From a virus (Duplodnaviria > Caudoviricetes): DNA of 64,000 nucleotides. Shown here in pieces: positions 3,061 through 62,036 of this stretch (its first letter is position 1; each line of letters begins with the position of its first letter). Under the pieces are notes generated by a model. It searched no databases, was not told the origin of the DNA, and saw only the letters and a program-made list of their open reading frames with translations. A program made the position numbers and the translations under genes. The DNA lies in IMG/VR virus record IMGVR_UViG_3300011616_000001, positions 20,730 to 84,729 of that record; one strand, written 5' to 3'.

Positions 3061-6000
3061 TTAACGATGTCTCGAAGTTGGTTTTCCGATTTGCTGCATT
3101 ACTGCGGCACGGAGGCCACCTTTTAAAATTCCTTCAGCAAGTTGGTCAGGGTTATCACACCTTTCGATTTTGATATCACCGAAGGTGAAAGTTGTAGAGT
3201 CACCAGATCCTCTTGTAGACAACTGTCCTTGATCGAACGTTGGTGGAATAAAATGAGAAATAGGGGCAGCAGCAGCTGAGAGATTTTTCAGTAACATAGC
3301 TTGCTGATCATCATTTAGCACAGCTTCGCCACGATGGGCGATGATTGGGACTGCATTGTTGATATCTTCAATTGGCTGACTCGAGAATAATCTGAGTAAT
3401 CGTTCACGCTTTGTTTCGTTGCCTGTACCGACAAGTCCATTCTCAATACCGTCAGCATAAAGATCGTTCTCGATAGGTATAGAGTCATTACCATAACCAG
3501 AAAAGATATCATTTAATGAACCACCCCAGTTACCCCAAGGAGAATCATCATCATCGTCGTCATCATCGCTGCTCCGTCTACTGTTCATTTCGTCCAAAGC
3601 ATCTTCAAGATTATCACGGACATCTTCCAGAATATATTTGATATCATTGACATCAGTGGTTAGCTGTTCCCAACTGGTCATATATTCAGAAATCAGCCCA
3701 GCATTCTCATTATATTGCCTGAATGAATCGATCAATTCTTCACCGGCAGTGATAAGTGCATCCTGAACAGTGGTTAGGATACTGTCTGCGTTGGCCTCGG
3801 CCCCAGTAGAAGCGGAGAGGAAGTCGAATACATTGTTCAGATTATCCATGCCGGACATCTTTTGATTCATTTGGGATAAGAGATCATTGATACCAGCAAC
3901 CGCCTGATCATAGGTGATAGTACCTTCCTTGTAGGCGGCAATATAGTCATTGAGCAGGTTATAGATGTTCTCGGTTGATTCGATCTGATCTTCATACTGA
4001 GTCATCTGATCAGAAAGAGTTTGATACATTCCGGAGAACATGTCGTAGATATCGTCATCTTTGCCGCTTAGGACTTTATCCTTCCAACCTTCGCCCAGAA
4101 TGTCGCTGGTAGCTGCTTCGTTCTTGGCCTGTTCGATTTTGTCTGCAATCTCTGACCACTTTTCGGAGATCTTTTCCAGAGAATCAATCTGTTCTTCGTA
4201 GCGGTCGTTGACTGCATCGAGTTCATCTTGGAGACCATCGATCTGCTGCTGAAGATTATGCTTTTCGAGATTAGCTAGTGCATCTTGTAGACTTTCTTGA
4301 GCGTTTCTGAGGTTTTCAGCATTATTTTCATATACCACTGTGCCCTCTCTTATTACCCGCTCCGTCTTCTGAGTATTGGCAGAATGAAGATCATAAAGCG
4401 CCTGTTCGTAAGCAGTCTGTAGCTGAAGCGCTTCATTCTGCTTGTTCAGTAATTCTAACCGCTCATTTAATACATCAATCTGAGCCTGATTCTTTTCTTT
4501 CTCCAGATCACGCTCTTCTTCAAGCAAATCAATCTGCTCCTGGATAGCATTTGTGACGGTTGAAATGACCGATTCATACTCGCTCTGTACCTTAGACATA
4601 GCATCTAAAGCTTTCTGCAAAGCGGAAGAGTAGTCGTTAACGGTGTCCAGAGGAATCTGCAGCATTGCTTCATTCCATTTGTGTAGATTTTCGATCATTG
4701 CGGACATTTCGGCATTGATAGACTGCATCTTGTCATAAAGTTTATTCCAGTTCTCGGAGCCTTCATCGTACTCATCCATTACATCTTGGATCAGACCGAT
4801 CTGTTCCTTATACTGGTCAATGACCTTCATGCCGTTATCGATAAGCATCTGGTAATATTCTCTATCAAGCTTTTTGCCCGATGCCTCCATTTCGGAACCC
4901 CAGCGCTCCATCGTATCCGTAATGGAGTTGATCATGTTCAGGATTACTTCCATGTTCTCAATTGGGAGATTCAGCAGCTGGTCTTCTACCTCAGCAATAG
5001 CTAAGTCAAGACCGGCCATATCCTCTTCCCAGCCTTCGATATCAGACATGATGTCATGATAGTCTTCGTCATCCGGACTAGCGCCTAGCTCAGCAAGTTT
5101 CTTCTTTGCTTCTTTGATTTTCTGTTCATAAAGGGCGATAAGCTTTTTATTATTTGCAATTACCTGTTCATACGATTGAGAGCTGACTATCTTACCCTGA
5201 GCTACAAGCAACTGGTTTTGAGCATCAATCTTGGCATTAGTAGAAGTGATCCGGTCAGCCTGTTTATCAAGATACTCTATGTTATTATCATAATAATTCT
5301 TGATGTTTTCGGCAGCTTCGGCTTCTAAATCGTTTTTCTCTTTGACCGTATCTTTGAGTTTATCATGAGCCGAAATTGCCGCCTCAATGTCCTTGGCTTC
5401 GTCACCGGAGTAGCTACTAATCTCAATAGAGCCGTTTTCAATTTTGTCACGGATTTCTGGAGCGAGTTTATTGACCAGTTCTTCGTATTTACGTTGATAC
5501 TCCTCGATAGCGGTCATATAGGTTTCAAGATGGATCTTATCAGCTTCGATGATCTGAGCTAGTGCGGATCTCCGGGATTCACTATAGTTTTCGCCATTGT
5601 AAATCATTGCGAAGAGATCAGCCATGGACATTCCTGCATTCTTGGCGATTTCTTGCAACTCTACCATGTCGGTGGTTATAGTAGAACCGTTGGCTTCAAT
5701 GAGTTCTTTGGCGCGGTCGAATTCCTCTTGGGTTAGACCGAGATAGGACATTGCGGCGTTAGATGCATCTTTTTCTAGCTCGTCCCTCTGATCCTTTAGT
5801 ATTTCAAGCAGGCGCTCGATCCAGTCAATTTCTGTTTCTTTGTCCTTGTCAGACTTGGATTTAGATTTGGACTTAGAAGAGTTGGCGTTGTTGACTCTAT
5901 CCACGTTTTCTTTTGTCCAGCCATAATTAAGACCATTAGCAAAAGCATTACCTTTAGCAAAAGCTTTGCCACGAGAACCAATTTTCCCATTTCGCTGTAG

Positions 6001-9000
6001 CTGCTCAGTCTGTTTGTGATTAAATATTATTGCATCTTTGGGTTTATCAATAAACTCAGCTCCGTTATCACCAACAGTATGATATGTTCCGCTGTGTGGG
6101 TCGACAATGGTTTCTTGTCCTAACTCTCCAACAAGGACTTTCTTTAAAGCTTTTCGATTCTTAATTCCTGAATTGCCGTTCGCATAAGCAGTTCCATAAG
6201 CACCAGCAGCACTTTCTTCACCGATACCTTCAGAATCTCCGGTGACCTTAGCAGTAGCATTAACATGAATATCTGCTAATACGCTTGGTAGTGCTTTGAT
6301 TGCGGTTGCTAGATCGTCAACCTTTTTCTTCGCACCGTTTGCATCGGTTCCAACACCCTCAAGACTATCCCTGGTTTTAGTTAGCTCAAGTTTTCCTGCC
6401 TCACTAATAGCATCAGTCAGGGTGTCAACAGAGACTTTTGCATCATCGGCTTCCTCGGTGATTTTTAGAAGCCCAGCTTTTTCGGTGTCTATTTCGAGAG
6501 ACTCAATACGTCCAAGGGCCTCTGTTAAGTCGTTGATCGGGACTAAATCTGCCGTTTGGAAAGACACTCCCTCAAGCATAAGCATTTCAGTAAGAGCCGT
6601 CTGAACATCTTCCTTGCTCTGACCAAAATCCTCCATCAATCCTTTAATTAAGTTATCGATATCAATATTGCCAGTTTCTGCATCAATCTTGATAAGACCA
6701 AGTTCTTTCAACTTCTCCATGTTGGCTCTGATCCGTTCTTCATTACCACTGGTCTCGAAGTCAATTAAAACTGTAGTGTCCATCTCAGCAACTTCTCCAA
6801 GAATCTGATGAATTTGCTTGCCGCTGAAACCTAATTCCTCAAGATACCTCTCCAGCGTTTGCATACTCATTACGGATTTGCCATCGAGATCTTCCATAGA
6901 AAATCCAACTAACTTGAATGCTTCAGCCAGTTCTTCGACATTGTACTTGACTGTACTACCGTTGATTTTGGACGCTTCTAAGAACTCAAGAAAAGCCTCT
7001 TTGGAAATGCCAATAGCTTTGGCGACTTCTTCATATTGAGTGGGATCGAGGTTGAGTTCAAAACTTCCGTCCGACAATAATTGAGCAGAAGAGTTTAATT
7101 TCTCTAAGACACCGCTTTTCTGAAGATCTAACAGTGGGTTCATGATCGCTGCGCCGTTATTATCAGGATCACTCCATAGCGACTGGAATTTCTTGACCTC
7201 GGCCCTTGCCGCATCAAGATCCATGTCATAAGAGCGGTCACCAAAGAAATATTCAAGGAGTCCTTCGGTATGTTTGCCGAAATCACCTTTTTTTAGATTC
7301 TCCTGCAATGTCTTGAATTTCTCGGTAGAGTCAACGTAGCTATCGTTGTAGTCATCTTCACCCAAGACTTTATTTAACTTGTCTTTTGCTTTAGCTACGC
7401 CATGCATTTCGTTGTCTAACCCACCAAGAACTTTACTTAAGAGAATACCGGATTCGGTTAAGCTTGCAAATCCGTTTTCGCCATTGGCGGTTTTCTGGAG
7501 AGCAGTTGCTAAGTATTCGGCAGATGCTCCGGTCTCGTATAGAAGATGAGCCAGGACCTCGTTTTCCTCAGCTAATTCGACGACTCTATCTGCTGTGATG
7601 GAACTTGCATCTCCAAGGTCTTCAATGCTAGCGAAGTAGTCTTCGACATCAGAATCACCAAGTTTTCCTATTTCTTTCTGCTTGATCCCCATGTCTTCAA
7701 GAGCAAAGATAACATCATCAATTGTTAACCCATACTCTTTTCCGAGTTCAATTAAGTCTTTGAATGCATTTTTACTATTTGGATCTTCAGCCAATAACTT
7801 AAGCTCTGTTGTGCTTTTTTTACCAAATACATCTGTTAATGAACTGGCTGATAAATTACGTTTATAATTACCAACAATAGATCCAACACGATCAATCATA
7901 TTTGTGTTTGCTGATAAATCGATGTTGGCAATTGCTGCACTTGGATTTTTAAGGGCGTATTGAAAATCATGAATCTGGCTGCTGGCTTTGTCAAATACTC
8001 CTTCGATAACGGATTCATAGCCTCTCCATTTGCCTTCAGTCAGATCAATGGAATTTCTAACTTCTCTTAGATTGTCGTGAGCCCCAGTAATATCTTCTTT
8101 TGTGCCGGATGTGAGGGCCGTGTTGTAGCGGGTTACCGCTTCGGCGGCCAGATTGTAGTCTTCAGCCAGACTTGATGTGGTCATGACTATATACAGTTTC
8201 TCATCTTCAACGATATCTTTTGTATTGCCCATGACTTCTTTAACAACATCTAATCCAGCACTGCCACCTTTTAAAATGCCAGTCATGTCTATTGATGTTC
8301 CAATATTCTCAGATTCAAACTCCTTTTTGACTGCTCTTACTTCAGTCATGAAGTCATTAATTATTTCTTCAGCATTTTCAACATCAGCATCTAAATATAG
8401 CTTGTAATAACCTTCGACTGCGGTAGATTCAGTTCGAAGACCCTTCTTTCTGTATTTTGAGACAATCTCATCTACCATTTTACCGTCATCATTGTTACGG
8501 TTATAGCCATGCAGCGCGAATGTTCTTTTTTTGTAATACTCATCTTTGGCGGTGTTGATATCATCTTCTTTGCTATTCAACCAGTTCTCAGCCAACTGTT
8601 TATTTAGTTGAGTGATTACTCCCAGCTGATTAGCATATGCATTTGTGACCAAATCAATTTTGCCGTGCTCTTCACCATACTTATCATTTAACTCAGTTTG
8701 CAGTTTAAGAAGTTCGCTTTTGATTTCGAACTGTCTTTCTTCGGTAGTATTAGCCGCAGTCAATTCTTTGTAGAGCGTTTTGTATTTTTCTGCTGTATCA
8801 TTGATTGATTCTTGCTCAGACCTCAGTGCTTGTAACGAGTCGTTGGCCGCGTCAATTGATTCTTGACGTTGCTGTTGATATTGTTTGTAAGCGATAGCTG
8901 CACCGGCGACTACAACAATTCCAGCAGTGAGGGCTGCGGTAAGTGTAGCAGCAGCGGCAGTACTGATTCCCATCTTTGCAGCAAGGGCTGTGTGGAGGTT

Positions 9001-9315
9001 GGAGAGGGTAACAGTGACACCTTGGTTGGTGATCTTTGCACCAGTGTTAGCATCGGTCGCAATAGTGTTTTGTGCTTCGGCAACTGTCAGGCCGGACGTA
9101 GCGAGAATGTCGCCTTCGGTGCTAGCAGTCACAGCAGCCGTAGAAAGTAGCAGCGATTTTTTTTCTGCATCAAGAAGTTTTGATGATAATACTAGTTTTT
9201 GTTGAGAAGCATCCAGTGTGTCAAATAAAGCAGCAGCTCTCGTTATATTGTTTATATCTTCATTGCCCATTAGTGTATTGATTACACTACCCACACCTAT
9301 TAGATTTTTAATTTG
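3061..9315 (-). CDS. Tape measure protein, exon 3 (2084 aa)
   Basis: Long Ala/Leu/Glu coiled-coil ORF with AYANG...LVGELGQE and IIAHRGEAVLN motifs seen in siphophage TMP C-termini; no SD before the TTG at 9318; first 18 nt pair with the intron 2 guide. Confidence 0.85.
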   Translation of the reverse strand, partial: QIKNLIGVGSVINTLMGNEDINNITRAAALFDTLDASQQKLVLSSKLLDAEKKSLLLSTAAVTASTEGDILATSGLTVAEAQNTIATDANTGAKITNQGVTVTLSNLHTALAAKMGISTAAAATLTAALTAGIVVVAGAAIAYKQYQQQRQESIDAANDSLQALRSEQESINDTAEKYKTLYKELTAANTTEERQFEIKSELLKLQTELNDKYGEEHGKIDLVTNAYANQLGVITQLNKQLAENWLNSKEDDINTAKDEYYKKRTFALHGYNRNNDDGKMVDEIVSKYRKKGLRTESTAVEGYYKLYLDADVENAEEIINDFMTEVRAVKKEFESENIGTSIDMTGILKGGSAGLDVVKEVMGNTKDIVEDEKLYIVMTTSSLAEDYNLAAEAVTRYNTALTSGTKEDITGAHDNLREVRNSIDLTEGKWRGYESVIEGVFDKASSQIHDFQYALKNPSAAIANIDLSANTNMIDRVGSIVGNYKRNLSASSLTDVFGKKSTTELKLLAEDPNSKNAFKDLIELGKEYGLTIDDVIFALEDMGIKQKEIGKLGDSDVEDYFASIEDLGDASSITADRVVELAEENEVLAHLLYETGASAEYLATALQKTANGENGFASLTESGILLSKVLGGLDNEMHGVAKAKDKLNKVLGEDDYNDSYVDSTEKFKTLQENLKKGDFGKHTEGLLEYFFGDRSYDMDLDAARAEVKKFQSLWSDPDNNGAAIMNPLLDLQKSGVLEKLNSSAQLLSDGSFELNLDPTQYEEVAKAIGISKEAFLEFLEASKINGSTVKYNVEELAEAFKLVGFSMEDLDGKSVMSMQTLERYLEELGFSGKQIHQILGEVAEMDTTVLIDFETSGNEERIRANMEKLKELGLIKIDAETGNIDIDNLIKGLMEDFGQSKEDVQTALTEMLMLEGVSFQTADLVPINDLTEALGRIESLEIDTEKAGLLKITEEADDAKVSVDTLTDAISEAGKLELTKTRDSLEGVGTDANGAKKKVDDLATAIKALPSVLADIHVNATAKVTGDSEGIGEESAAGAYGTAYANGNSGIKNRKALKKVLVGELGQETIVDPHSGTYHTVGDNGAEFIDKPKDAIIFNHKQTEQLQRNGKIGSRGKAFAKGNAFANGLNYGWTKENVDRVNNANSSKSKSKSKSDKDKETEIDWIERLLEILKDQRDELEKDASNAAMSYLGLTQEEFDRAKELIEANGSTITTDMVELQEIAKNAGMSMADLFAMIYNGENYSESRRSALAQIIEADKIHLETYMTAIEEYQRKYEELVNKLAPEIRDKIENGSIEISSYSGDEAKDIEAAISAHDKLKDTVKEKNDLEAEAAENIKNYYDNNIEYLDKQADRITSTNAKIDAQNQLLVAQGKIVSSQSYEQVIANNKKLIALYEQKIKEAKKKLAELGASPDDEDYHDIMSDIEGWEEDMAGLDLAIAEVEDQLLNLPIENMEVILNMINSITDTMERWGSEMEASGKKLDREYYQMLIDNGMKVIDQYKEQIGLIQDVMDEYDEGSENWNKLYDKMQSINAEMSAMIENLHKWNEAMLQIPLDTVNDYSSALQKALDAMSKVQSEYESVISTVTNAIQEQIDLLEEERDLEKEKNQAQIDVLNERLELLNKQNEALQLQTAYEQALYDLHSANTQKTERVIREGTVVYENNAENLRNAQESLQDALANLEKHNLQQQIDGLQDELDAVNDRYEEQIDSLEKISEKWSEIADKIEQAKNEAATSDILGEGWKDKVLSGKDDDIYDMFSGMYQTLSDQMTQYEDQIESTENIYNLLNDYIAAYKEGTITYDQAVAGINDLLSQMNQKMSGMDNLNNVFDFLSASTGAEANADSILTTVQDALITAGEELIDSFRQYNENAGLISEYMTSWEQLTTDVNDIKYILEDVRDNLEDALDEMNSRRSSDDDDDDDDSPWGNWGGSLNDIFSGYGNDSIPIENDLYADGIENGLVGTGNETKRERLLRLFSSQPIEDINNAVPIIAHRGEAVLNDDQQAMLLKNLSAAAAPISHFIPPTFDQGQLSTRGSGDSTTFTFGDIKIERCDNPDQLAEGILKGGLRAAVMQQIGKPTSRHR

Positions 9316-9337
9316 CAATACATCATATATGCTGAAG

Positions 9338-9366
9338 TTGTTAATCTTTAGCTTATATGCTAGAAT
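9338..9366 (+). promoter_or_regulatory. Sigma-A-type promoter for the antisense Zn-ribbon gene, overlapping the intron 2 3' end
   Basis: TTGTTA-17 bp-TAGAAT with extended TG; RBS GGGAGG 9374-9379. Confidence 0.65.
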
Positions 9367-9387
9367 TTAAAATGGGAGGTAATAAAA

Positions 9388-9753
9388 ATGGAAACAAAAA
9401 AAGAAGACTACGTTATTGTCACAGGAGAAACTGAATTAAAAGCTTTCGATAAAGGGAGAAAGATGTTTGATCCTTCTATCTCAGGTTATTTTAAGTGTGA
9501 AGTTATATCAAAGACTGATACAGAAGCGACTGTTAAGGTAATTAAAGTTCCCCCACTTACCCCGGCAGAAGCGGCAGCATACAGGCAGTCACTATCATTA
9601 CCACCAATAGTCACCTGTCCCTACTGCAAATCAACAGACACCAAAAAGATATCGGGCCTATCCAAAGCTGGATCAGTCGCTGTCTGGGGAATCTTTGCTG
9701 CTGGGAAGGTGTCGAAGCAATGGAAGTGTGGGAAGTGTAAGAGTGAGTTTTAG
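9388..9753 (+). CDS. Zn-ribbon protein with hydrophobic hairpin (intron 2 cargo, antisense)
   Basis: CPYC...GSVAVWGIFAAG...WKCGKC; own promoter and RBS. Confidence 0.75.
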   Translation: METKKEDYVIVTGETELKAFDKGRKMFDPSISGYFKCEVISKTDTEATVKVIKVPPLTPAEAAAYRQSLSLPPIVTCPYCKSTDTKKISGLSKAGSVAVWGIFAAGKVSKQWKCGKCKSEF

Positions 9754-9755
9754 GC

Positions 9756-9809
9756 AAATAAAAAGAGTGCTGTAAAATAGCCAAACAATCAGTTATTTTA
9801 CAGCACTCT
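9756..9809 (-). terminator. Intrinsic (probably bidirectional) terminator inside intron 2
   Basis: Perfect 16-bp stem 9764-9779/9794-9809, followed on the minus strand by UUUUAUUU. Confidence 0.8.
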
Positions 9810-9875
9810 ATTACTATTTAAATGATATATCAGATATTGGATAAATCGAAGTAGCATTATAATACCATTCATTAT

Positions 9876-10124
9876 TTAGTGATTAATAAGAGGAGTGTTT
9901 ACAACATATTCCTTAAAATTATCAAATATTAGACCTAATTCTACCCAATAGCTGACTAATCTGAGCATTCGTTGTGCTTCTGGCTCTACACCTAATTCAA
10001 TTAATTTTTTAGATATTGTATCGATTGTGAAACGTCCACCGGGTTGTGACAAAGCAACATTATATACTATAAGATCATAGTCGCTTCCTATATTGCTGCT
10101 ACGTTTAATTAACATATTACACAT
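9876..10124 (-). CDS. Small protein, possibly winged-helix (intron 2 cargo)
   Basis: RBS AGAGGGG within the end of the HD gene; pattern FTIDTISKKL...VSYWVELGLI. Confidence 0.6.
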   Translation of the reverse strand: MCNMLIKRSSNIGSDYDLIVYNVALSQPGGRFTIDTISKKLIELGVEPEAQRMLRLVSYWVELGLIFDNFKEYVVNTPLINH

Positions 10125-10129
10125 GGCAA

Positions 10130-12220
10130 TTACCCCTCTTGTTTAATATTTTTATAGATATCTATTTGATTATCTAAAGTAGTTATTATTAGATTAACTG
10201 CATTTTTGGCAATTTCTACTCCGACACGATTTAAAAACTTGTCAAGATCCAAGTTCCTTTCATATTTCTTTGGTAAAATATAAATGTAAAATTGAGGGAA
10301 AGTATTATAACCCAAATTTAATACATTTCTAATTGAACTTATCTCATGAATAGAAACAACATTCTCTGAATTCTTCTTTTGGCTATGAAACATAATTGGT
10401 TTGGTTAATCCGTTATTATATTTCTTTATAACACAGACTACGTCTTCAATCGAATTTCCCAAGGCTTCCTTACTTTTATTTACACTCTCTTTTATTGCAG
10501 GATTTAAACCAAAAGGTTTTATAGAATACAATATCTTTATACTATTAAATATTAAGCCCTGAAATGTGTTTGAGTCGTTTTCGTAGTTTTCTGTAGCTGA
10601 ATAGAAGACAGAAGCAACATCTTTTAAAAAAGGATCAATTGGAACTTTTGGTGAACTTCCCGATTCTTTATCACTTAAATTTTGCAAGGATTTAATCTTA
10701 CAATCTATGATTTCTTTATTGCTCATTAATTCATTTAAAATTGCTTTATCAATAATTAAGAAATCTTCTAGTCTTTTTATGACCGAAATATAGTACCGTT
10801 TATTCATTAAAAGTTCTTTAAGCTGTTTTGTTAAGTAATTATCTGGATTGCCAATATAATTGCTGAAAAAATGCTTTTTTAATACAGTCAACAACCAAGA
10901 GTCATCCCATTGCGAAATTGCATAAGAACTTTCAACACCAGATATAGGTTTTAAAGCTTTCCACAACCCAGATATGTCATTGGGCAATAAATCAGAGTAT
11001 TTCTCTTCTGCAATTTCGGCTACCTCCTTCGCAGGTATTCCTACTTCCATTGTAGCTGCAGCTTCATTGTCTTCTTCTGGCATATCTTTATTCAGTTTAT
11101 CTTTCAAATATGCAATACTGATATTGGTAATTACATTTTGCATCAAATAATCCGTTTTAACCGCATGATGATGAAATATTATATTTTTATAAATACCCCA
11201 TCTTCGTTCAAGAAAATCTTCCACTGTATTAACCACTTTTATACTTGGACAAAATAAATAATTTCGTTCTTCTTTATTAGTTTTGGCGCTTGTGATGTCT
11301 GCTTGAACAAGTTTCATACTACTAAATAACCTATCGTATTCAATAGTGCCTTTTTTTAATCCTGAGTTATATGCATCTCTTGAAGAGTAGTCAAGTCGAT
11401 CACCATCTAATGATCCATCGATAATAGCATGTATATCTTCAAAATCTTTCTCGGTAAAAATATCACAGGCAGTTCGAACGATCAAAACTTCAAATAATTG
11501 TTTATTATATATTTTTGCATTACTTGAATCACTTTCGTCAATATTATCGACCGAATCCCGTAAAATTCTTTCAGAAATCCTATTCCCCATTTGTTCGTGT
11601 AGTTTTTGTGAACCTGTCCCATTAAATGAGTTCATAATTTTAATGAATTCATTCATTTTAGGGGTTTTATCAGTTATCCCTGATATTATTTCTTTTACAT
11701 CTTCTAATGCAAATTCTGCTACATGACTATATGGTGGATGCCCAATATCATGTAATAGAGCCGCAACTCTAATAGCTTCATGAAGAATTACATATGTCGA
11801 TTGATGATCAAGTGCATTTTTGGGCATATTGAAAAAATTATCAAACTCTTTTGGAATTTTTGGGATTTTTGCTGTACGAAGTTTTTCAAGGCGTTCCCCA
11901 AATTTATTCGCAAATTTATCTAATGCAAGGTTAGGTATTGATTTATTGAGCTTATCTTCATAATGCACAAAGAAATTTTTTGCATGTTCGGGATTAGCAT
12001 TTTTGATTGAATTATAAAAAATATTACTACATAAATGCATTGTACCTATACTGTGTTCAAATCGTTTTGTCCTATTACATGGAAAGGTCATGTATACAGT
12101 GGAATTTTGATACACATCATGAAGTCGGTTAAACATAACATGCGATAAGACTTTTCTTTCCAAATTAGTTAATTCAATATTTCCATGAATACTATCTGCT
12201 ATGATGCCCCTTTTAGCCAT
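10130..12220 (-). CDS. HD-superfamily phosphohydrolase, SAMHD1/dNTP-triphosphohydrolase-like, with long C-terminal extension (intron 2 cargo)
   Basis: IADSIHGNI, FNRLHDVYQN, RFEHSIGTMH, ALLHDIGHPPYSH, LDGDRLDY, IYKNIIFHH motifs. Confidence 0.9.
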   Translation of the reverse strand: MAKRGIIADSIHGNIELTNLERKVLSHVMFNRLHDVYQNSTVYMTFPCNRTKRFEHSIGTMHLCSNIFYNSIKNANPEHAKNFFVHYEDKLNKSIPNLALDKFANKFGERLEKLRTAKIPKIPKEFDNFFNMPKNALDHQSTYVILHEAIRVAALLHDIGHPPYSHVAEFALEDVKEIISGITDKTPKMNEFIKIMNSFNGTGSQKLHEQMGNRISERILRDSVDNIDESDSSNAKIYNKQLFEVLIVRTACDIFTEKDFEDIHAIIDGSLDGDRLDYSSRDAYNSGLKKGTIEYDRLFSSMKLVQADITSAKTNKEERNYLFCPSIKVVNTVEDFLERRWGIYKNIIFHHHAVKTDYLMQNVITNISIAYLKDKLNKDMPEEDNEAAATMEVGIPAKEVAEIAEEKYSDLLPNDISGLWKALKPISGVESSYAISQWDDSWLLTVLKKHFFSNYIGNPDNYLTKQLKELLMNKRYYISVIKRLEDFLIIDKAILNELMSNKEIIDCKIKSLQNLSDKESGSSPKVPIDPFLKDVASVFYSATENYENDSNTFQGLIFNSIKILYSIKPFGLNPAIKESVNKSKEALGNSIEDVVCVIKKYNNGLTKPIMFHSQKKNSENVVSIHEISSIRNVLNLGYNTFPQFYIYILPKKYERNLDLDKFLNRVGVEIAKNAVNLIITTLDNQIDIYKNIKQEG

Positions 12221-12975
12221 AACCCCTCACTTTTGTAATAACAGTATGTAAAATGTATTGTATTTACTTGAAATCAAAAAATGCTTAGTACTGTTATACG
12301 CGTAGTTTTTTCTATATATTACCATATATGCTGTGTTTTTTCTATAACTTTATTATTGTTTTAATTATTTTATATCATTCTAATTACAATTTATCAAGCG
12401 GATTTTATCATATTTAGTCAACTTATCATTGATAAAAAAATAATAAATTGCATTTTTAAAGGTTGTCTATTTTTCTTTAACAAACGACTAAAAATAGTAA
12501 ACAAGCCGCCTGACCTTTTCTAGCAAGGATTATCAGAGAGTCAGAAAACTCCAATAATCACTATACCTTAAAAGCATTCCCAGTAAGGTAGGGGATACTC
12601 TGAGGATCGGTAGTCGTTGAACATCCATTCCAATTTAACCTGTTACTCCTTTTTAGGGGGATATTGGTTTCGTAGACCGTTGGAATGTGTGCTGCTAGTT
12701 ACCCATTGTCGTGTAGCACTTAGGACGTATTTGCATACGCTTGTATTTCACCTTATGCCAAACAACCCGTTTTTTCTGCTTTCGCCGCATATCACGTTTA
12801 TCATTGCTGATTCCGTTGTAGCCGGGATGTTGTTAGGGGATTCAAGCAATTACTCCTCATGACGTTTATTTTAAAACTCCGTCTACACATAATTGTACTA
12901 TGAACCATGCTATCATTTCCTTTTATGTGCGTGCCCAAATTAAAAATCTAATAAAATACCCTTCTTTCAGGGTTA

Positions 12976-13327
12976 AGCGAAGTTTTTGAAAAGTTTGAAG
13001 CCGCCCAGTCCTGCTAGGAGAGGAGTCAGGACGCCGACTTCTTTGACAATTTGTGTTAGGACATTGACGAAGGCTGTGCCACCATCAACAAAGTTTTTTA
13101 GGAAGTCTGAGCTTATTGCCGTTTGAGCAAGGCCTTGGAACGCGGCCTTCAGTCTGCCCAATCTAAATTCGAGCGATTCAGCATACCTGCTCTGTTCCTC
13201 CATAGCTGATCCGGAGGAATTCTTTGAATCGTTATAGGCTTTTTCTACCTGTCCGGATTGGAATGCCTTGATAAGTGCTGCGATTTGGTTACCACGCTGT
13301 TTACCAGCAATTATTTCGAGTAGGTCT
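12976..13327 (-). CDS. Tape measure protein, exon 2 (352 nt)
   Basis: Encodes DLLEIIAGKQRGNQIAALIKAF...SAMEEQSRYAESLEFRLGRLKAAFQ...FKNFA, continuing the TP901-type TMP core of exon 1. Confidence 0.85.
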
Positions 13328-15119
13328 CATTTTGTTCCGCAAGTTCATAACGCTTGCGAGTTATTGGCTTATTCTATAGTTGATTAGGCTATAGATGGTA
13401 TTTCTTTTATAATATTGAGTTTTACAAGTTCATCAAATAGCTTATATTCAATATCATCATAACAAGTAATTCTTATTAAGTATATTTTATTCTTGCGACA
13501 ATAATCGTCTTTTATATTGTCATGGCTTACAGTTTTGGAAAATGAGTTCAGCCCCCAAACTGGACGAAAATGTTGTTCTCCGTCGAATTCTATTAAGGTG
13601 TTATACTCTGGCAGATAAAAATCAAAGGGTAAAGGTCTTTTATCCTTGCAATCTTGGTATTTTTTTTGAGTTTCAAATTGATAGCCCCATTTATCCAACA
13701 GATTACTAATTTGTTTCTCTCCCCAATAAAATCTGCTGCATTTGGGACACGATTTACCTTTTTTAACCATGTGACTAGCATGGGATAGGTATATAAATCC
13801 GCATAATTTACATTGAAGCTTTACATTATTTTTCATGCCATGATATTCTAAAACACTTATATTGGGGACTAAGCGAGTTACTTTTAGAGAAAATTCGTCT
13901 AGAGTCAAATAATTATGAGCGGAAAGTTTTTCTAATCCACATAAATAGCAACCCCTTCCATTTAAAATATCCTGCATGGACTTTGTTGAAATAACATTGT
14001 GCTTAATGCAACGGCATTTAATCCTGGCAGACAGTTTTGTATAAGGTTCCAACAATTGTACATTAGGATTTACTTCTGCGGCTTTTTGCATTACATATTG
14101 TTTGGGCAGCTGTCGCCCAAAACAATATTTACACCCCTTGATATCTCGTTCCATATTTTTCTGTTGCATAAGTTGTATACCAAAATCTTTATGTTTGTTA
14201 CAGATGAATTTAATAAATATAATGCCGTCCATTCTAATCGTATCTATGTATGTAAAATCCTTTGACTCAGCCAAGACCTTATGTTTTTCTTTGTCAAGTG
14301 CAATTCTTTTCTTATTTCCATTTGCAATTCGCCCGCAGTGAGGACACCCCTTTCCCTCCAATAGATGGCCGAGAGTAGTATGTTGTTCCCCAATTTCTTC
14401 ATGTATTTTGCATATATATTTTATTTTAGAACCAGCGTTGTGAAAGTCGGTTGCATCAGACTTGAGTATATAGTTCTTTTTTTCTATATAATGAACAACA
14501 TCATCAAATGAATACTTTTTGTTTCCGCTGGGCCTTTTCAATTTCATGTCTTTTCTCTTACAGGACACCGAGCTTAATGTTCTTGGGAAAAGAAGTACAC
14601 AAAGTTCTTCATCAGACATTAATTTCCAGTTATCAATAATAATTTGTTCTTCTTGTTTCGTCCATTTCAAGTTATCACCCTTGTACTATTTATTTTTTGT
14701 TGGAAGGTAATCAACCTCCATATCACGCCAATAACATCTCTGTGTTTCCACAGACGGTCAGACTATTTCTTAACCACACTCTTTCATATAGAAGAGTAGC
14801 AGTCACACCGTTTCCATTTAAGGGGTTCTCACCCATACCATTAATTTGTACCGTACTCCTATTGCCATAGATATGTATTCTCTGGTCTATGGCCCTTCAC
14901 GGGGATAGTCGTTTGACTCATTCCTATTCGGAACTTCGCGCCCAAGCTACCATTGTCACTCCACTTAGGATTTTGTCCATATGGAATCTCTGTCGTTGTT
15001 TCACTTTCGTTACCTTCATACCAGCATATTTCATCCGTATTGTGGTGACAGAGCTTTAGGTTTTACTGGGTTTAGATGTGTTGTTCTGTGCATATTTCTA
15101 TGCACACAGGCAGAACTTT
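13328..15119 (-). mobile_element. Group I intron 1 of TMP gene (1792 nt) with homing endonuclease ORF in P9
   Basis: Guide 15106-15117 matches the ligated exons at 11/12; P2 GAAA hairpin 15088-15105; P3 15075-15080/14804-14809; R UCAAACGACUA 14906-14916; S AAGAAAUAGUCU 14760-14771; P9 GAAA hairpin 14740-14753; terminal G at 13328; splicing gives EQA-DLLE in frame. Confidence 0.9.
13384..14670 (-). CDS. Intron-encoded homing endonuclease, Vsr/DUF559-like C-terminus with repeated Zn-binding modules
   Basis: N-terminal KWTKQEE Myb-like segment; repeated C..H/CPxC modules; C-terminal GEKQI..LL...LPFDFYLPEYNTLIEFDGEQHF. Confidence 0.85.
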   Translation of the reverse strand: MKWTKQEEQIIIDNWKLMSDEELCVLLFPRTLSSVSCKRKDMKLKRPSGNKKYSFDDVVHYIEKKNYILKSDATDFHNAGSKIKYICKIHEEIGEQHTTLGHLLEGKGCPHCGRIANGNKKRIALDKEKHKVLAESKDFTYIDTIRMDGIIFIKFICNKHKDFGIQLMQQKNMERDIKGCKYCFGRQLPKQYVMQKAAEVNPNVQLLEPYTKLSARIKCRCIKHNVISTKSMQDILNGRGCYLCGLEKLSAHNYLTLDEFSLKVTRLVPNISVLEYHGMKNNVKLQCKLCGFIYLSHASHMVKKGKSCPKCSRFYWGEKQISNLLDKWGYQFETQKKYQDCKDKRPLPFDFYLPEYNTLIEFDGEQHFRPVWGLNSFSKTVSHDNIKDDYCRKNKIYLIRITCYDDIEYKLFDELVKLNIIKEIPSIA

Positions 15120-32745: not shown

Positions 32746-33768
32746 TTAAACGAAAGCATCAAACGCATCGTCTTCATCGTCCCGGATGACATAATGCTTT
32801 GAGGTGGTTTCGCTAGATTCGTGACCCAGTAGTTTCTGAGCCGTCTCAAGAGACTTGTGTTCATGAACAACCAGATTGGTGGCTCTCGACTCTCTGAGTA
32901 AATGCGGATGAACTCTCCGCCCTACAATTTTTTCGAATAGGCCATTACACCAGTTATTGAATGTACCCTCACCAACCTGTGTGGTTACCCCATTCTTCTG
33001 TTTTATGACAAACATGTATGGACAATCGTCATCCCCACGTATTTCGAGCCACTTCTTCAGAACATCCATGACATCCTGCCCGAATTGCAGCTTGCGGACT
33101 TTCCCGACTTTTGATCTGCCCTTACACCTTATGTCATGCGTTTTGTACGCCACGGAGATGATTTCAGATATATTTCCATTCTCATCTCTGATTTGAACAG
33201 GTTTTTCCTGGGGAGTATATTCAACCACCTCTTTAAGCAGTTGCCGCGTCTCAGCCCTACGGCATCCGGTACTATAGGAGAATTTTAAGTAGGCTAATTT
33301 TTGCCATTCTCCAAGCTCAGTCAATCTTGTGCACAGGTTGTTATACTCGGCGGGAGTGAGTGGTTCCTTCTTGTGTACATACCCTGTCTTGATTACGACC
33401 ATCTCTGAAGTGACATAGTTCCGGAACATCGGATATTCCTCTTCATAATAAGACTCGATGAATTTGTTTAACGCACTAACTGCTGATTTTTTGAATTTGA
33501 TTGCAGAGTCGGACAAACCACGGTTGGTTAACCAATTCAGATATCTCAAAAACTCTTTTTTCTTAATATCAACGCAATCTTTATTCTTTAGATTTTCTTT
33601 TACCCACCAGAAATAGATTCTCAGGGCGGAAGTGTATGCAGTTTGAGTTTTTACGGAGAGGTGGGTTTGGTTACTAAGATAGTCCTGAACCATTTCTCGA
33701 TTAAATGTGGACACCTCACCCCACATTTCCTCTGTCACATCATCAGATCGTTTAGCGATTTCACTCAT
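32746..33768 (-). CDS. Tyrosine recombinase
   Basis: STGCRRAE (R), HPHLLRES (HxxR), LLGHES (H), TSKHY (Y) all intact. Confidence 0.92.
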   Translation of the reverse strand: MSEIAKRSDDVTEEMWGEVSTFNREMVQDYLSNQTHLSVKTQTAYTSALRIYFWWVKENLKNKDCVDIKKKEFLRYLNWLTNRGLSDSAIKFKKSAVSALNKFIESYYEEEYPMFRNYVTSEMVVIKTGYVHKKEPLTPAEYNNLCTRLTELGEWQKLAYLKFSYSTGCRRAETRQLLKEVVEYTPQEKPVQIRDENGNISEIISVAYKTHDIRCKGRSKVGKVRKLQFGQDVMDVLKKWLEIRGDDDCPYMFVIKQKNGVTTQVGEGTFNNWCNGLFEKIVGRRVHPHLLRESRATNLVVHEHKSLETAQKLLGHESSETTSKHYVIRDDEDDAFDAFV

Positions 33769-35762: not shown

Positions 35763-38600
35763 CTATGATTCGATTGCCTGGTAAGAGTGGGCAATCCTTT
35801 TAAAAGGTATATCATATAGTTTGATTTCGCCAGAGGGGGCTTCTTCAAGATATGTTGCATGAGCCCGGGCATTTATAATCAATTCTATTAAATCGTCATT
35901 CTTGTGACCAAACAAAACACCGAATAGAGTTTTTGAAATATCTTTATACTCAGGCATGTCTATATACCTAACTAATGCGTACATAGTGTCGGGGTTGATT
36001 TTAATCTTTCTGATATCATGTAGTAAATCAGTCCGGTATGCTTCAGTCAAAAAATGCTTTTCAGCGGAAGAGTAGTATTCCCTGCTCCAAATGAACTGTA
36101 TACCCTTAGTGGTTTCTCGACATCTCGAAACTATCATTTTTAGCTGTTTACGATTAACGGAATTAGTATTATATCCTTCAAAGTAGAAACATTTAGACAA
36201 CGGGAAAAACTCAGTTGGCTTTGATTTTGATGATTTGTATTTATTGAGTATTTTTAAAACAAAATCCATTGTTGTGTGGTGATACACATATTTTTTTCTT
36301 GCGCAATTTTTATAACCCTTGGATTGTGCAATAAATCCGAGAAAGGCTGGTTTTATCATTTTTTTGTCAAAAGTATATTCCATCCACCTTTTTTTGATTT
36401 TTCTTATTTCTTTGTCAGACGATATATCGAACTCTTTTTTTGCCTTATCTATTTCTATACACGATAAAACATTTAGTATGCATATGTCATAATAGAGATC
36501 CTTCACATCTTCGTAGCAATCTATTAGCCTTTTATTTGATTTGTTTATGTACTCCCACATCATTGTATTTAGTTCTTGTGATAGATTTACAATTTCCCCG
36601 ATCTTATTTTCACTGGTTTTATAATCGAGATCAGCCTTATTCTCATTTGTGTAATATCTTTGAGACTTTCTGGCTTTTACAAGATTAGCCGGAATCTTAA
36701 AAACATTATAGTTTCTCAGTGCAGCTGTAATCAGGATTTCATTATCAGTAACAATCATTTGATCTGAGTCAAAGTCAGCACCACTCAAACGCTCTAAAAT
36801 GTTTTCTTTTATCGCATTTATACAGACTATTTCTGGTGTGAGATTAAAATATATATCAATCAGGTCGTGCTTCATATTTGTGGTGATAAGAATATTTGAG
36901 GTTGATATGTGTGGACTTCTGCAACCCAACAACTTCTTACCATAGGGGTAACGCCGTGTATGTATATTACCAGGAGGGAGAGAAGACTCTCCGCTAAATG
37001 CCCCTAGCGTATGTAGCAGCATCTCATATGGATTGCCGAATAAAACTGAGTAGTTTCCGTCAATTAATATGTGGCCCATTTTGAGATTTTTCAAATAGGA
37101 TTTACAAGTTTCTTTTTTGAAGTCATAGAAGTACTTAGTGTTTGCGAAATCGGAAGAGATATTTAACATCTTATACACAATTTCATTCTTGTTTGTCAGG
37201 ACATTATCGATTTCTGCTTCGTTATCTTGTATTTCACACTTGATATGATATTTTAGAACATCGGTGTCGGTGTTTAGGTAGTTGACATACTCCAGTGATG
37301 GGTTTAGTAATTTTTTGATCTCTGTTTCTGATAACTGCAATGTATTTAATAATTGGTAATGGGCCTGAACCATTCTCCCATCAAAGTAATGTGTTTTTTT
37401 ATCGTGTTTTACAACACTAAAGGTCGAATCAATATTTGTTAACCAATCTGTAAGTGATCCAAACTTGATGTATTTAATGCTATTAGGAGTTGTAACCAGT
37501 TTTATATCTTCTATCCTTGAAGCAAAAGTGATTGACTCTGGGTGAAGTTGAGAGATGTTTGTAATATTATTATCTCGAAACCATTGTTGTAAGTTTGTAT
37601 TAAAGCAACATGATTTGAAAAACCTGTTTCTCAGAAGCATCATACCATAGCAAGAGTATTTGCCCATGATACTCATATCAATTAAAGACTGACCATCAAA
37701 GATTGAATTTGATATGTTAGCAACACCTTCTCGGACGCATATGTCATTTTTATCATCCATTTCGACAATAATAGACTCTTCCTGAACATTACTGTCATAA
37801 TCAGGTATAATCAGAATGTTTCTAGGATCGATATCTATGATATCAATGGCACTGCTCGTTGGCAGTGAGATATAGGATTCAAGGGCGGCTAGGTCTATAC
37901 TTTGCCCATCTTGAATATCCAAACCACACATTTCCCAAGCATGAAGTGGGGGATATAGTCTCTCATCAATGAAAAGACATTTTCCTACTCTGGCAGAACC
38001 AGAAGATCTTTTAAAGCGAACATAATGTTTGCCATTACAATTAAAGCCATTTTCATATAAATATTCTCTCAGTTCTTTTTTGGTCAGTTCTACATGGATA
38101 TTTTTTGCGACATAATTCCATGTCCCGTTTTCGTTTTCCTCAAATGAAAAGCCTCGTGGTAAATCAAAACTTGTTTCCTGGTGTGTGGGGACATTTGTAA
38201 TTACACCAACAATAATGCCGTCGATAGTGGCGATATTATCCTTGAATATAAGTTCATCCAAAAAATACCCACTCATAACAAAAGTATTCTTCTTTAACTT
38301 ATTAAAGGCCTTGCTGCTATACTCAAAGGTCACATTGATTATCTTGTCACTGTAATCTTTTCCGTTGTGCTGAAATGTAAGCGGTTCTTTTTTGGGGAGT
38401 ATCTCTCTTGCTACTTCAGTGAGCTTCATTTTATCCAAACTGAAGTCGAATGAATTACGAAATCTGTTGTAATTAATATCTCCATTTTTTGTTATTAAAC
38501 GATATCCTGTTTGATTCTGTTCAGCGTTGTGTGATGTATTTGCTAAATATAAATCTTTAGCATCTATACTTGGAATGTAAATGCATTTTCTTGAGTTTAT
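35763..38600 (-). CDS. yonO: YonO-like single-subunit RNA polymerase (apparent ATA start, 945 aa)
   Basis: YVRFKRSSGSARVGKCLF, RNRFFKSCCF, RSPH, catalytic GADFDSD (36762-36776), IGEIVNLSQ, EIDKAKK; frame open 54 codons upstream of 38438 to an ATA 8 nt after AGGAGG. Confidence 0.85.
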   Translation of the reverse strand: MNSRKCIYIPSIDAKDLYLANTSHNAEQNQTGYRLITKNGDINYNRFRNSFDFSLDKMKLTEVAREILPKKEPLTFQHNGKDYSDKIINVTFEYSSKAFNKLKKNTFVMSGYFLDELIFKDNIATIDGIIVGVITNVPTHQETSFDLPRGFSFEENENGTWNYVAKNIHVELTKKELREYLYENGFNCNGKHYVRFKRSSGSARVGKCLFIDERLYPPLHAWEMCGLDIQDGQSIDLAALESYISLPTSSAIDIIDIDPRNILIIPDYDSNVQEESIIVEMDDKNDICVREGVANISNSIFDGQSLIDMSIMGKYSCYGMMLLRNRFFKSCCFNTNLQQWFRDNNITNISQLHPESITFASRIEDIKLVTTPNSIKYIKFGSLTDWLTNIDSTFSVVKHDKKTHYFDGRMVQAHYQLLNTLQLSETEIKKLLNPSLEYVNYLNTDTDVLKYHIKCEIQDNEAEIDNVLTNKNEIVYKMLNISSDFANTKYFYDFKKETCKSYLKNLKMGHILIDGNYSVLFGNPYEMLLHTLGAFSGESSLPPGNIHTRRYPYGKKLLGCRSPHISTSNILITTNMKHDLIDIYFNLTPEIVCINAIKENILERLSGADFDSDQMIVTDNEILITAALRNYNVFKIPANLVKARKSQRYYTNENKADLDYKTSENKIGEIVNLSQELNTMMWEYINKSNKRLIDCYEDVKDLYYDICILNVLSCIEIDKAKKEFDISSDKEIRKIKKRWMEYTFDKKMIKPAFLGFIAQSKGYKNCARKKYVYHHTTMDFVLKILNKYKSSKSKPTEFFPLSKCFYFEGYNTNSVNRKQLKMIVSRCRETTKGIQFIWSREYYSSAEKHFLTEAYRTDLLHDIRKIKINPDTMYALVRYIDMPEYKDISKTLFGVLFGHKNDDLIELIINARAHATYLEEAPSGEIKLYDIPFKRIAHSYQAIES

Positions 38601-60998: not shown

Positions 60999-62036
60999 GT
61001 GAGTAAGTCAATCAAGGGCAAGATACTAGATAATATACTTGTGACGATGATGGATTACATAGATACCGATACACTCCACATGTTAGGGAGAGTAATCACA
61101 GATGAACTGATAGCGGTTAATGTGGAAGCAATTACTACGCTACCAGCAGAATATAAAAACACGGTTCAGGAAAAGAACAAATATGTTATTCAGTTGTTTC
61201 TAATTCGAAAGAAAAATCTTAAGCCAAAAACAAAGGAAGGCTATTTGAATGCCATTAAGCGGTTGATAACGTCGATCAATTATAAACCATTGGATGCCAT
61301 GGATGAGAACGATATTGACTGGTATTTAACAGCGTACGAACGCAGAAATGTATCTTCAGGTGGCAGAATTAACAAACCAGCTACGGTTAATAATGAGCGA
61401 CATTATCTATCAGCGTTTTTCAGTTGGATGAGAAGGGCTAAATTAATATCTGACAATCCGGTGGATGGCATTGAGCCGATAAAGGTGGTTCAGCCACCGA
61501 TTGATTATTATACAGCAGAAGAAATGGCACAAATGCGAGATGCATGTAGAAATATCCGAGAGAGGGCCATATTGGAAACATTTCGGTCAACTGGAGCCAG
61601 AGTCGGGGAAGTTTCTGAAATTAGACGAGATCAGGTAAATATGGATACTGGGGACATCCTGATCCTGAGTAAAAAAAGTGAATTGTATCGGATGATTTAT
61701 CTGGATGAGGATGCAAGGCATTATTACCGGCTATACCTTGAAAATCGATCCGATGACAGTCCTTATATGTTTGTTGGGTGTAGGGCGCCACATAGTAAAT
61801 TGAGCACAGATGCGTACCGAGGGATTTTCAAGGAGATTGGACTGCGGGCTGGAATAAAGACTAGAGTATACCCACATAAAATGAGGAAAACGCTGGGAAT
61901 GGGATTGAAAAACAAAGGTTGTGATCTGGGTACAATACAGGAGATTCTGGGACATAAGAATCCTATGGTGACAGCAATGTATTATGCACAAAGTACGCCA
62001 GACACATTGCGTCAGGTTCGATCAAGAGTTTTGTAA
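60999..62036 (+). CDS. Tyrosine recombinase (N-terminal SAM-like domain)
   Basis: STGARVGE, YPHKMRKT, ILGHKN, TAMYY intact. Confidence 0.92.
   Translation: MSKSIKGKILDNILVTMMDYIDTDTLHMLGRVITDELIAVNVEAITTLPAEYKNTVQEKNKYVIQLFLIRKKNLKPKTKEGYLNAIKRLITSINYKPLDAMDENDIDWYLTAYERRNVSSGGRINKPATVNNERHYLSAFFSWMRRAKLISDNPVDGIEPIKVVQPPIDYYTAEEMAQMRDACRNIRERAILETFRSTGARVGEVSEIRRDQVNMDTGDILILSKKSELYRMIYLDEDARHYYRLYLENRSDDSPYMFVGCRAPHSKLSTDAYRGIFKEIGLRAGIKTRVYPHKMRKTLGMGLKNKGCDLGTIQEILGHKNPMVTAMYYAQSTPDTLRQVRSRVL

Follow-up and report, generated by a model that had tools for sequence, protein, structure and literature searches.

A putative group I intron with exchangeable cargo genes and a long, covarying P10 helix in the tape measure gene of an SPbeta-like phage

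Introduction

Group I introns of phages are seen as small and selfish, with no more than one homing nuclease on board. In introns of the T4 nrdD (sunY) type the catalytic core stands 5' of the inserted coding sequence, and P9.0 together with P10 fixes the remote 3' splice site; these introns hold a single endonuclease open reading frame (ORF), measure about 1 kb in total and have a P10 of a few base pairs. In organellar trans-splicing group I introns, long guide/target duplexes bring in a separate exon. Here we describe a 3660-nt insertion in the tape measure protein (TMP) gene of a temperate SPbeta-like gut phage, which we consider likely, on the basis of its sequence and that of its relatives, to be a group I intron removed by cis splicing of a read-through transcript. 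The gene lies in a 64-kb stretch of DNA (hereafter the window) that forms part of an 84.7-kb IMG/VR virus record (IMGVR_UViG_3300011616_000001).

The closest described systems are of two kinds. IStrons such as CdISt1 and BcISt1 join a 5' group I ribozyme of the IA2 type to 3' protein-coding DNA and are spliced as one unit, so that their insertion into a gene is harmless; their load is an IS200/IS605 transposon (TnpA/TnpB), and they move to many sites, inserting after a T-rich pentanucleotide (Tourasse et al. 2014, PMC4227781). Group I introns are also found in the TMP genes of Bacillus cereus-group prophages, where the splice sites of TMP-IVS1-3 are set by P1 and P10 (Tourasse and Kolsto 2008, PMC2504315). 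The latter introns range from 200 bp to more than 1 kb, carry at most one homing-endonuclease ORF and have a short P10 (PMC2504315).

Architecture of the tape measure gene

The TMP gene lies on the minus strand of the window and falls into three pieces (16831-15098, 13326-12976 and 9315-3061, counting from the first letter of the window). The exon 1 ORF (16831-15098) encodes a PhageMin_Tail domain and matches positions 544-832 of the phrog_4211 tape measure profile. Exon 2 (12976-13327; 117 codons) is read in the frame 13326-12976, which matches positions 836-941 of the same profile and so directly continues the exon 1 match; its product ends in ...FKNFA, the final codons AAC TTC GCT closing at 12976 and being followed by TAA. 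Exon 3 (3061-9315) is an open frame of 2084 codons. When exons 2 and 3 are joined the frame reads FKNFA-QIKNLIG, the predicted ligated RNA being ...AACTTCGCT|CAAATTAAAAATC..., with an exon 3 side that begins CAAATTAAAA....

Uninterrupted homologues span this junction. The 2146-aa TMP of viral contig L019 is 37% identical to the exon 3 region over 595 aa, and its ...VKNFE-QLKNAS... aligns without a gap across FKNFA|QIKNLIG; the uninterrupted 1966-aa TMP of L011 is likewise gap-free at this point, and exon 2 aligns to both proteins. We therefore regard the intervening 3660 nt as an insertion into one gene. An initial annotation of this DNA, made from the letters and ORFs alone, had placed the junction here, and set against the L019 protein that placement is exact to the residue. 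The insertion, which we term intron 2 (9316-12975, minus strand), starts with UAA and ends with G, its limits being given by the geometry of P1 and P10 and by the gap-free protein alignment. A megablast search with 8800-14800 against cultured phages returned no match.

Pairings at the splice sites

Just inside the 5' end of intron 2, on the same strand as the TMP gene, a hairpin (ACCCU-GAAAGA-AGGGU, 12958-12973) stands within the predicted loop of P1. It is followed by the P10 guide (12936-12955) and then directly by the internal guide GGC (12933-12935), the intron strand of P1, which pairs with exon GCU (12978-12976) as a G-C pair, a C-G pair and a U-G wobble at the splice site. The P10 guide is complementary to the start of exon 3: the arms 12936-12953 and 9298-9315 match over 18 nt at 100%, all in Watson-Crick pairs, and two G-U pairs lengthen the helix to 20 bp (12955-12936 with 9315-9296, the first 20 nt of exon 3), giving a duplex of -18.1 kcal/mol. 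A repeat finder reported these arms as the sole perfect long inverted pair in 9150-13150, and the 18-mer is present at only these two places in the window. The intron closes with the bases TTG, the last of which (9316) is the terminal G, or omega G. From P1-loop hairpin through P10 guide to P1 strand the order of elements is canonical for group I introns; the length of P10 alone is unusual. The end of exon 2, the 18-bp P10, the 3-bp P1 with its U.G wobble, the terminal G and the in-frame junction had all been pointed out in the initial annotation, and we find each of them in the same place.

Interrupted relatives

The same position is interrupted in other phages. We found 14 distinct related loci in which exon 2 is 52-57% identical and is cut after the same codon; exon 2 of L144 reaches 67%, over a shorter best segment. 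The related TMPs, from viral contigs and human-gut metagenomes, stop after ...FIKNFD or ...IFKNLD, with the site interrupted in L006-L010 and L128-L139. Where both ends of the intron fall within the locus, intron lengths are 4402, 4684, 5453, 5493, 5702 and 7108 nt. The introns of relatives begin with U, continue with a hairpin, an A and a long guide, and then present GUC, which is paired with exon GAU. The position of the hairpin is kept and its sequence differs (GGCUCU/AGAGCU in L006, AGCCA/UGGCU in L007). Exon 3 of the relatives starts in frame with HLKDLGN, HLKNLGN or QFKELGS, and the base before it is G in all six introns (L006, L008, L130, L010, L007 and L128); exon 3 of L007 was located by means of L006 exon 3 and by reading of the locus.

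Both splice-site helices have changed on both of their strands. The middle pair of P1 shows a compensatory change, from GCU/GGC in the window to GAU/GUC in the relatives. Among three guide lineages P10 is altered on both strands at positions 3, 4, 10, 16, 17 and 18, and positions 19-20 alternate between G-U and A-U. The helix ranges from 11 to 22 bp in relatives, the shortest being that of the L007/L128 lineage. Alignment of related loci thus gives the picture that the initial annotation had anticipated, with fixed flanks, variable cargo and a guide that covaries with exon 3.

Some further loci deserve mention. In L134, no exon 3 matching the guide is present within 9 kb of position 9349, and this intron may exceed 9 kb. 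In L140, a different sequence follows the same codon (..KNFG|) from position 3666, possibly another type of intron at the site. Two relatives are in culture, Thomasclavelia phages TR-TP1 and TR-TP2; the introns of their TMP genes are all of the ordinary endonuclease kind, and none lies at this site.

The ribozyme core

By BLASTN, 12851-12739 has matches in Listeria phage LPJP1 and, in Lactococcus phage AM1 and its relatives, in the gap without annotation that splits the gene for DNA polymerase III alpha. The intron family to which these sequences belong shares a motif, CTACAACGKAA, 6-8 nt, GRTARRCGTGA, that is present in more than 100 viral loci. The group I covariance model RF00028 scores above its gathering threshold across this motif in L023, L029, L038 and L094 (62.8, 70.8, 64.9 and 53.4 bits, respectively), which maps the motif to the P5 extension, between P4/P5 and P5'/P4'. 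In the motif-bearing introns P7 covaries, with GACUA/UAGUC, GACCA/UGGUC and GAUCA/UGAUC all represented. From 18 canonical motif-bearing introns, none of them from TMP loci, we built a covariance model, R1. It has a single match in the window, at 12868-12704 (28.6 bits, E 4.6e-4), and it also matches L006-type introns (29.6 bits) and AM1 (65.7 bits).

On this basis the core can be placed at 12455-12932 of the minus strand. Homology assigns P3 to 12858-12854 with 12606-12602, the 5' strand of P4 to 12849-12841, the P5-extension motif to 12821-12792, P5'/P4' to 12707-12689, P6 to 12685-12625, R (the 5' strand of P7) to 12622-12609, P8 to 12599-12573 and an S-like element (the 3' strand of P7) to 12569-12559; a further hairpin follows at 12559-12528. 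The initial annotation had the core elements within 12558-12860, and those we place run from 12858 (5' strand of P3) to 12559 (S-like element). The P3 pairing GAGGA/UCCUC is also present in L006, with GAGGAA/UUCCUC as its counterpart in L007, and P8 is built from unrelated sequences in the different introns (CAGAAC/GUUCUG in L006, AGUAC/GUACU in L007). Two introns, L138 (2417-3045) and L139 (6672-7300), are chimeric: they combine a P1 loop and guide of the L006/L010 type with the core type of the window and, past the S element, sequence that is again of the L006 type. Recombination has therefore also taken place within the ribozyme.

The same TMP gene contains a second intron, of the ordinary phage kind. 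Intron 1 (15097-13328, minus strand) is matched weakly by RF00028 at 14878-14738 (24.9 bits) and contains a canonical GACUA/UAGUC and an ORF for a 428-aa zinc-finger/Vsr-like homing endonuclease (14670-13384, minus strand; phrog_559, 1.9e-56).

Some members of the wider intron family are of interest in themselves. In AM1 (L004, KY554768.1; 3167-4354) the annotation divides the DNA polymerase III alpha gene into two coding sequences, and the gap between them holds two small LAGLIDADG-like ORFs as well as the unannotated stretch that matches R1; this match implies an unannotated group I intron in 949-like phages. In LPJP1 (L005, MZ422438.1; 2932-3421) a family member with P7.1/P7.2-type inserts and the canonical AAGAUAUAGUCUG occupies an unannotated gap, and the hypothetical proteins that flank it are probably the products of one split gene. 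In several viral contigs the drum RNA motif (RF02958, 66-71 bits) is found some 400-500 nt downstream of the P5-extension motif (L027 1696-1802, L031 2165-2275, L037 1935-2045, L055 2919-3029 and L061 4-110), which suggests that drum RNAs lie in or beside introns of this family.

Cargo genes

Beyond the core, intron 2 carries three ORFs. The largest encodes a 696-aa HD phosphohydrolase (10130-12220, minus strand; Pfam HD) with more than 1000 full-length homologues. Its N-terminal ~310 aa resemble SAMHD1/dGTPase, the SAMHD1-like segments being residues 6-67, 148-200 and 252-310; matches in PDB are to SAMHD1 and 2hek, and there is a dGTPase motif in NCBIfam and a dGTPase match in PADLOC (8e-7). 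Curated anti-phage dGTPase models gave no full-length match, only the HD motif region being hit at ~21-27 bits against cut-offs of 150-470 bits. The second ORF encodes a protein of 82 aa (9876-10124, minus strand). A gene of 79-80 aa follows the HD homologue in L150 and in L151/L152, and the small partner proteins are 39% identical (E 1e-21). This two-gene module (L150 3004-5341; L151 7001-9328) is found beside the lysis genes of another prophage, and a bacterial chromosome carries it between its operons for ATP synthase and riboflavin. Its recurrence elsewhere indicates one mobile unit rather than two unrelated genes. Judging from these sequence matches, the module is probably anti-phage or superinfection-related, and its mobility as a pair would fit a role in defence.

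The third ORF, antisense to the TMP gene, encodes a 121-aa zinc-ribbon protein (9388-9753, plus strand); its ribosome-binding site is GGGAGG, and a promoter-like TTGTTA-17-TAGAAT stands at 9338-9366. Its C-terminal domain (CPxCxSTN...K..K...C..C) is encoded at the same position and in the same orientation near the 3' splice site in L006, L008, L010 and L007, and this fixed place leads us to count the gene among the conserved components of the intron's 3' arm. A 121-aa gene beside the HD homologue in L151 was considered as kin of the zinc-ribbon gene and proved unrelated. The initial annotation had described the three ORFs as unrelated cargo genes: all three exist, but the HD and 82-aa genes form a conserved module and the zinc-ribbon gene is not free cargo.

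The same annotation had held that the cargo includes no homing endonuclease, and we agree: the three ORFs contain no LAGLIDADG, GIY-YIG, HNH, His-Cys or PD-(D/E)XK domain that we could find. Searches of Pfam, PHROGs and NCBIfam likewise gave neither a homing endonuclease nor a transposase for the cargo of this intron or of the related ones, returning weak zinc-ribbon resemblances only.

The load of the intron turns over. L008 and L010 are 92% identical in the 5' exon and ~580 nt of the intron and have unrelated interiors; L008, L006 and L130 have their first 2.3-2.7 kb in common and then diverge; L007 and L128 differ by large blocks. The cargo of L010 comprises KwaA-like and KwaB-like genes and a gene with a P63C domain, and that of L008 a GmrSD/NsnA-like nuclease together with an S24/HTH repressor. 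The Kiwa pair is normally a co-directional operon. Its arrangement in L010 (9371-10865) is odd: the KwaA-like gene (plus strand) and the KwaB-like gene (minus strand) are convergent and overlap by 14 nt.

A model for splicing and the evidence against it

If intron 2 is spliced in cis, the ribozyme would be confined to about the first 520 nt and would act on a 3' splice site 3.66 kb downstream, selected by the terminal G and by the 18-20-bp P10 that the guide in the P1 loop would form. The long P10 tether would stand in for closeness between the 3' splice site and the core, such that any amount of DNA could fit between them. In the lysogen, the late tail operon would be silent and the cargo expressed independently. 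During lytic growth a late transcript, possibly made by a YonO-like polymerase of the phage, would cross the whole intron past an internal terminator, and the ribozyme would then join exons 2 and 3 to give a single TMP of ~2770 aa.

A number of observations weigh against this model. P1 is just 3 bp long (5 bp in L007). RF00028 finds no core, either at its gathering threshold in the window or at E up to 10 in 9000-13500; on the whole genome it reports intron 1 only, plus two chance-level matches inside the HD gene. A group I covariance search, which the initial annotation had suggested as a check, therefore answers in two ways, with R1 recognizing the core and RF00028 missing it; we read the miss as low sensitivity of the model, because most relatives with a long P5 are missed too. 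Minimum-free-energy folding of 12990-12520 gave nothing better than shuffled sequence does (z -0.58) and is uninformative. Finally, the sense strand carries a strong terminator-like hairpin ~440 nt before the 3' splice site (9756-9809, minus strand), an inverted repeat with a 16-bp stem, a 14-nt loop and a U-tract that lies between the convergent cargo genes.

Structurally, it is P7 that gives most cause to doubt the activity of the predicted intron. Its S-like strand is UAGUG, as compared to UAGUCUG in the family, and lacks the C of the guanosine-binding G-C pair. The same C is missing from L139, whose sister intron has a mean column identity of 87% in an alignment of 648 columns (exon flanks included), and an assembly error can thus be dismissed. 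Four pairs of P7 do form with the S-like strand and covary: L139 has CAGUG with GACUG in R, a compensatory change from A-U to G-C in the distal pair. L139 also has matched indels in P8. Further downstream, UAGUCGUU (12490-12483) pairs with AACGACUA over 8 bp, restoring the G-C pair, and its GUCGUU is conserved in L139 and in L006/L010. P7 may accordingly be completed by this downstream strand, with ~70 nt looped out.

The terminator bears on how exon 3 is expressed, since with a terminator inside the intron exon 3 is either reached by read-through or made separately. A comparable sense-strand terminator lies inside the L008 intron (13669-13693). The initial annotation had credited the cargo with its own promoters and terminator; the terminator is borne out by the hairpin, and the promoters are not, sigma-70-like matches in the region numbering 24 against 19.7 expected in shuffled sequence. 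Elsewhere in the window, the product of 35763-38438 (minus strand) is 891 aa long, matches phrog_8308 and weakly resembles RNA-dependent RNA polymerase; its relatives in SPbeta-like phages of Bacillus, Enterocloster and Thomasclavelia are annotated as RNA-dependent RNA polymerases. This protein is probably a late polymerase of the YonO type. We infer from a paper's discussion of the missing flap domain that polymerases of this type could ignore hairpin terminators. The window also encodes an anti-repressor.

Alternative explanations

Exon 3 might instead be supplied by a separate RNA. The upstream RNA, comprising exons 1 and 2, the core and the HD operon, would end at the terminator, and the guide helix would act as an intermolecular tether to the exon 3 RNA in a trans-splicing reaction. 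The terminator and its counterpart in L008 are what such an arrangement calls for, and a guide of 18-22 bp far exceeds what a P10 in cis needs; it resembles the extended guides of engineered trans-splicing ribozymes (PMC6155759). The core and the 3' arm share no other long-range pairing: a comparison of the core with the final 110 nt of the intron gave A/T-rich chance matches only, none of them common to the lineages. Against this stands the absence of any sigma-70-like sense promoter that we could find between the terminator and exon 3, a stretch taken up by the antisense zinc-ribbon gene and its promoter. Moreover, the L007/L128 lineage makes do with a mere 11-bp P10, a YonO-type phage polymerase could read through the terminator, and removal in cis as one unit across embedded genes is documented for IStrons (PMC4227781). 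The lack of a sense-strand promoter and of a second long-range pairing leads us to prefer splicing in cis, and we think trans-splicing unlikely. A broader proposal, which we hold to be possible but doubtful, is that the intron serves as a checkpoint as well as a store, exon 3 being joined only after YonO-like read-through of the terminator or, in trans, via the guide tether.

Loss of splicing altogether seems to us distinctly improbable. The intron would then be a decayed remnant, and the gene would yield two TMP polypeptides, one from exons 1 and 2 ending at the UAA and another from exon 3, initiated at the in-frame TTG at the end of the intron. The missing guanosine-site pair in the S-like strand and the RF00028 result are in keeping with decay, as are the last intron bases, which are TTG here and ATG in L010, L007 and L128, in each case in frame with exon 3. 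However, no ribosome-binding site was seen in the sequence upstream of exon 3, and in three lineages the intron closes with ACG, which does not serve as a start codon. The conserved downstream GUCGUU can supply the missing C, and the double-sided changes in P1, P10, P7 and P8 imply that the RNA pairings have stayed under selection. Covariation of P1 and P10 has no meaning if two proteins are made.

Nor has it any if the 3.66-kb island is excised from the DNA by site-specific recombination before late expression. Elements that interrupt sporulation genes provide a precedent for excision of this kind. The window does encode two integrase-like proteins (32746-33768 and 60999-62036), and the insert bears independent genes. 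The junctions, however, have no direct repeats; the boundary repeat is inverted, as RNA pairing demands, and no recombinase was found in the cargo here or in relatives. We reject this explanation on account of the junctions and the cargo, and consider it hardly credible.

Discussion

Our preferred interpretation, splicing of intron 2 in cis, has consequences for how such introns are viewed. The intron would be a neutral slot in an essential virion gene, in which kilobases of defence-type genes are stored and exchanged. Prophage defence hotspots could then sit in introns, linking the inheritance of cargo to an indispensable gene. Gene callers would systematically split such TMPs and take the interior for ordinary intergenic islands. 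If splicing occurs as we propose, a long P10 may free the choice of 3' splice site from distance, which would be relevant to the design of trans-splicing and RNA-circularising ribozymes. Should the checkpoint proposal be true, production of full-length TMP would depend on the late transcription machinery, and the element would represent natural trans-splicing or a phage group I intron gated by read-through. The covarying guide offers a direct experimental handle.

Set against known systems, part of this has precedent: group I introns in prophage TMPs are already known, and so is the layout of IStrons. Like IStrons, intron 2 has its ribozyme at the 5' end and its genes in the 3' part, and the junctions point to removal as one unit. 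It differs from them in that no transposase domain was found, in its fixed codon of one gene across a phage clade, in its changeable, defence-like load and in its 18-22-bp P10. With no transposase in the cargo and a single copy in the 84.7-kb record, we do not assign it to the IStrons; nor do we assign it to the homing introns, no endonuclease having been found in its ORFs. It shares with TMP-IVS1-3 its location in a prophage TMP, and intron 1 of the same gene is an intron of just that ordinary kind. Unlike them, intron 2 measures 3.66 kb (up to 7.1 kb in relatives) and carries a multi-gene cargo on both strands with no endonuclease found. As in engineered trans-splicing ribozymes (PMC6155759), a long guide/target duplex would bring a distant or separate exon to the ribozyme; there the extended guide pairs with the 5' target RNA, whereas here a natural guide pairs with the 3' exon. 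Full-text literature searches for group I introns that carry defence genes turned up no comparable case. What is new is the combination of a multi-kilobase, bidirectional and exchangeable cargo of defence type with a covarying P10 of 11-22 bp.

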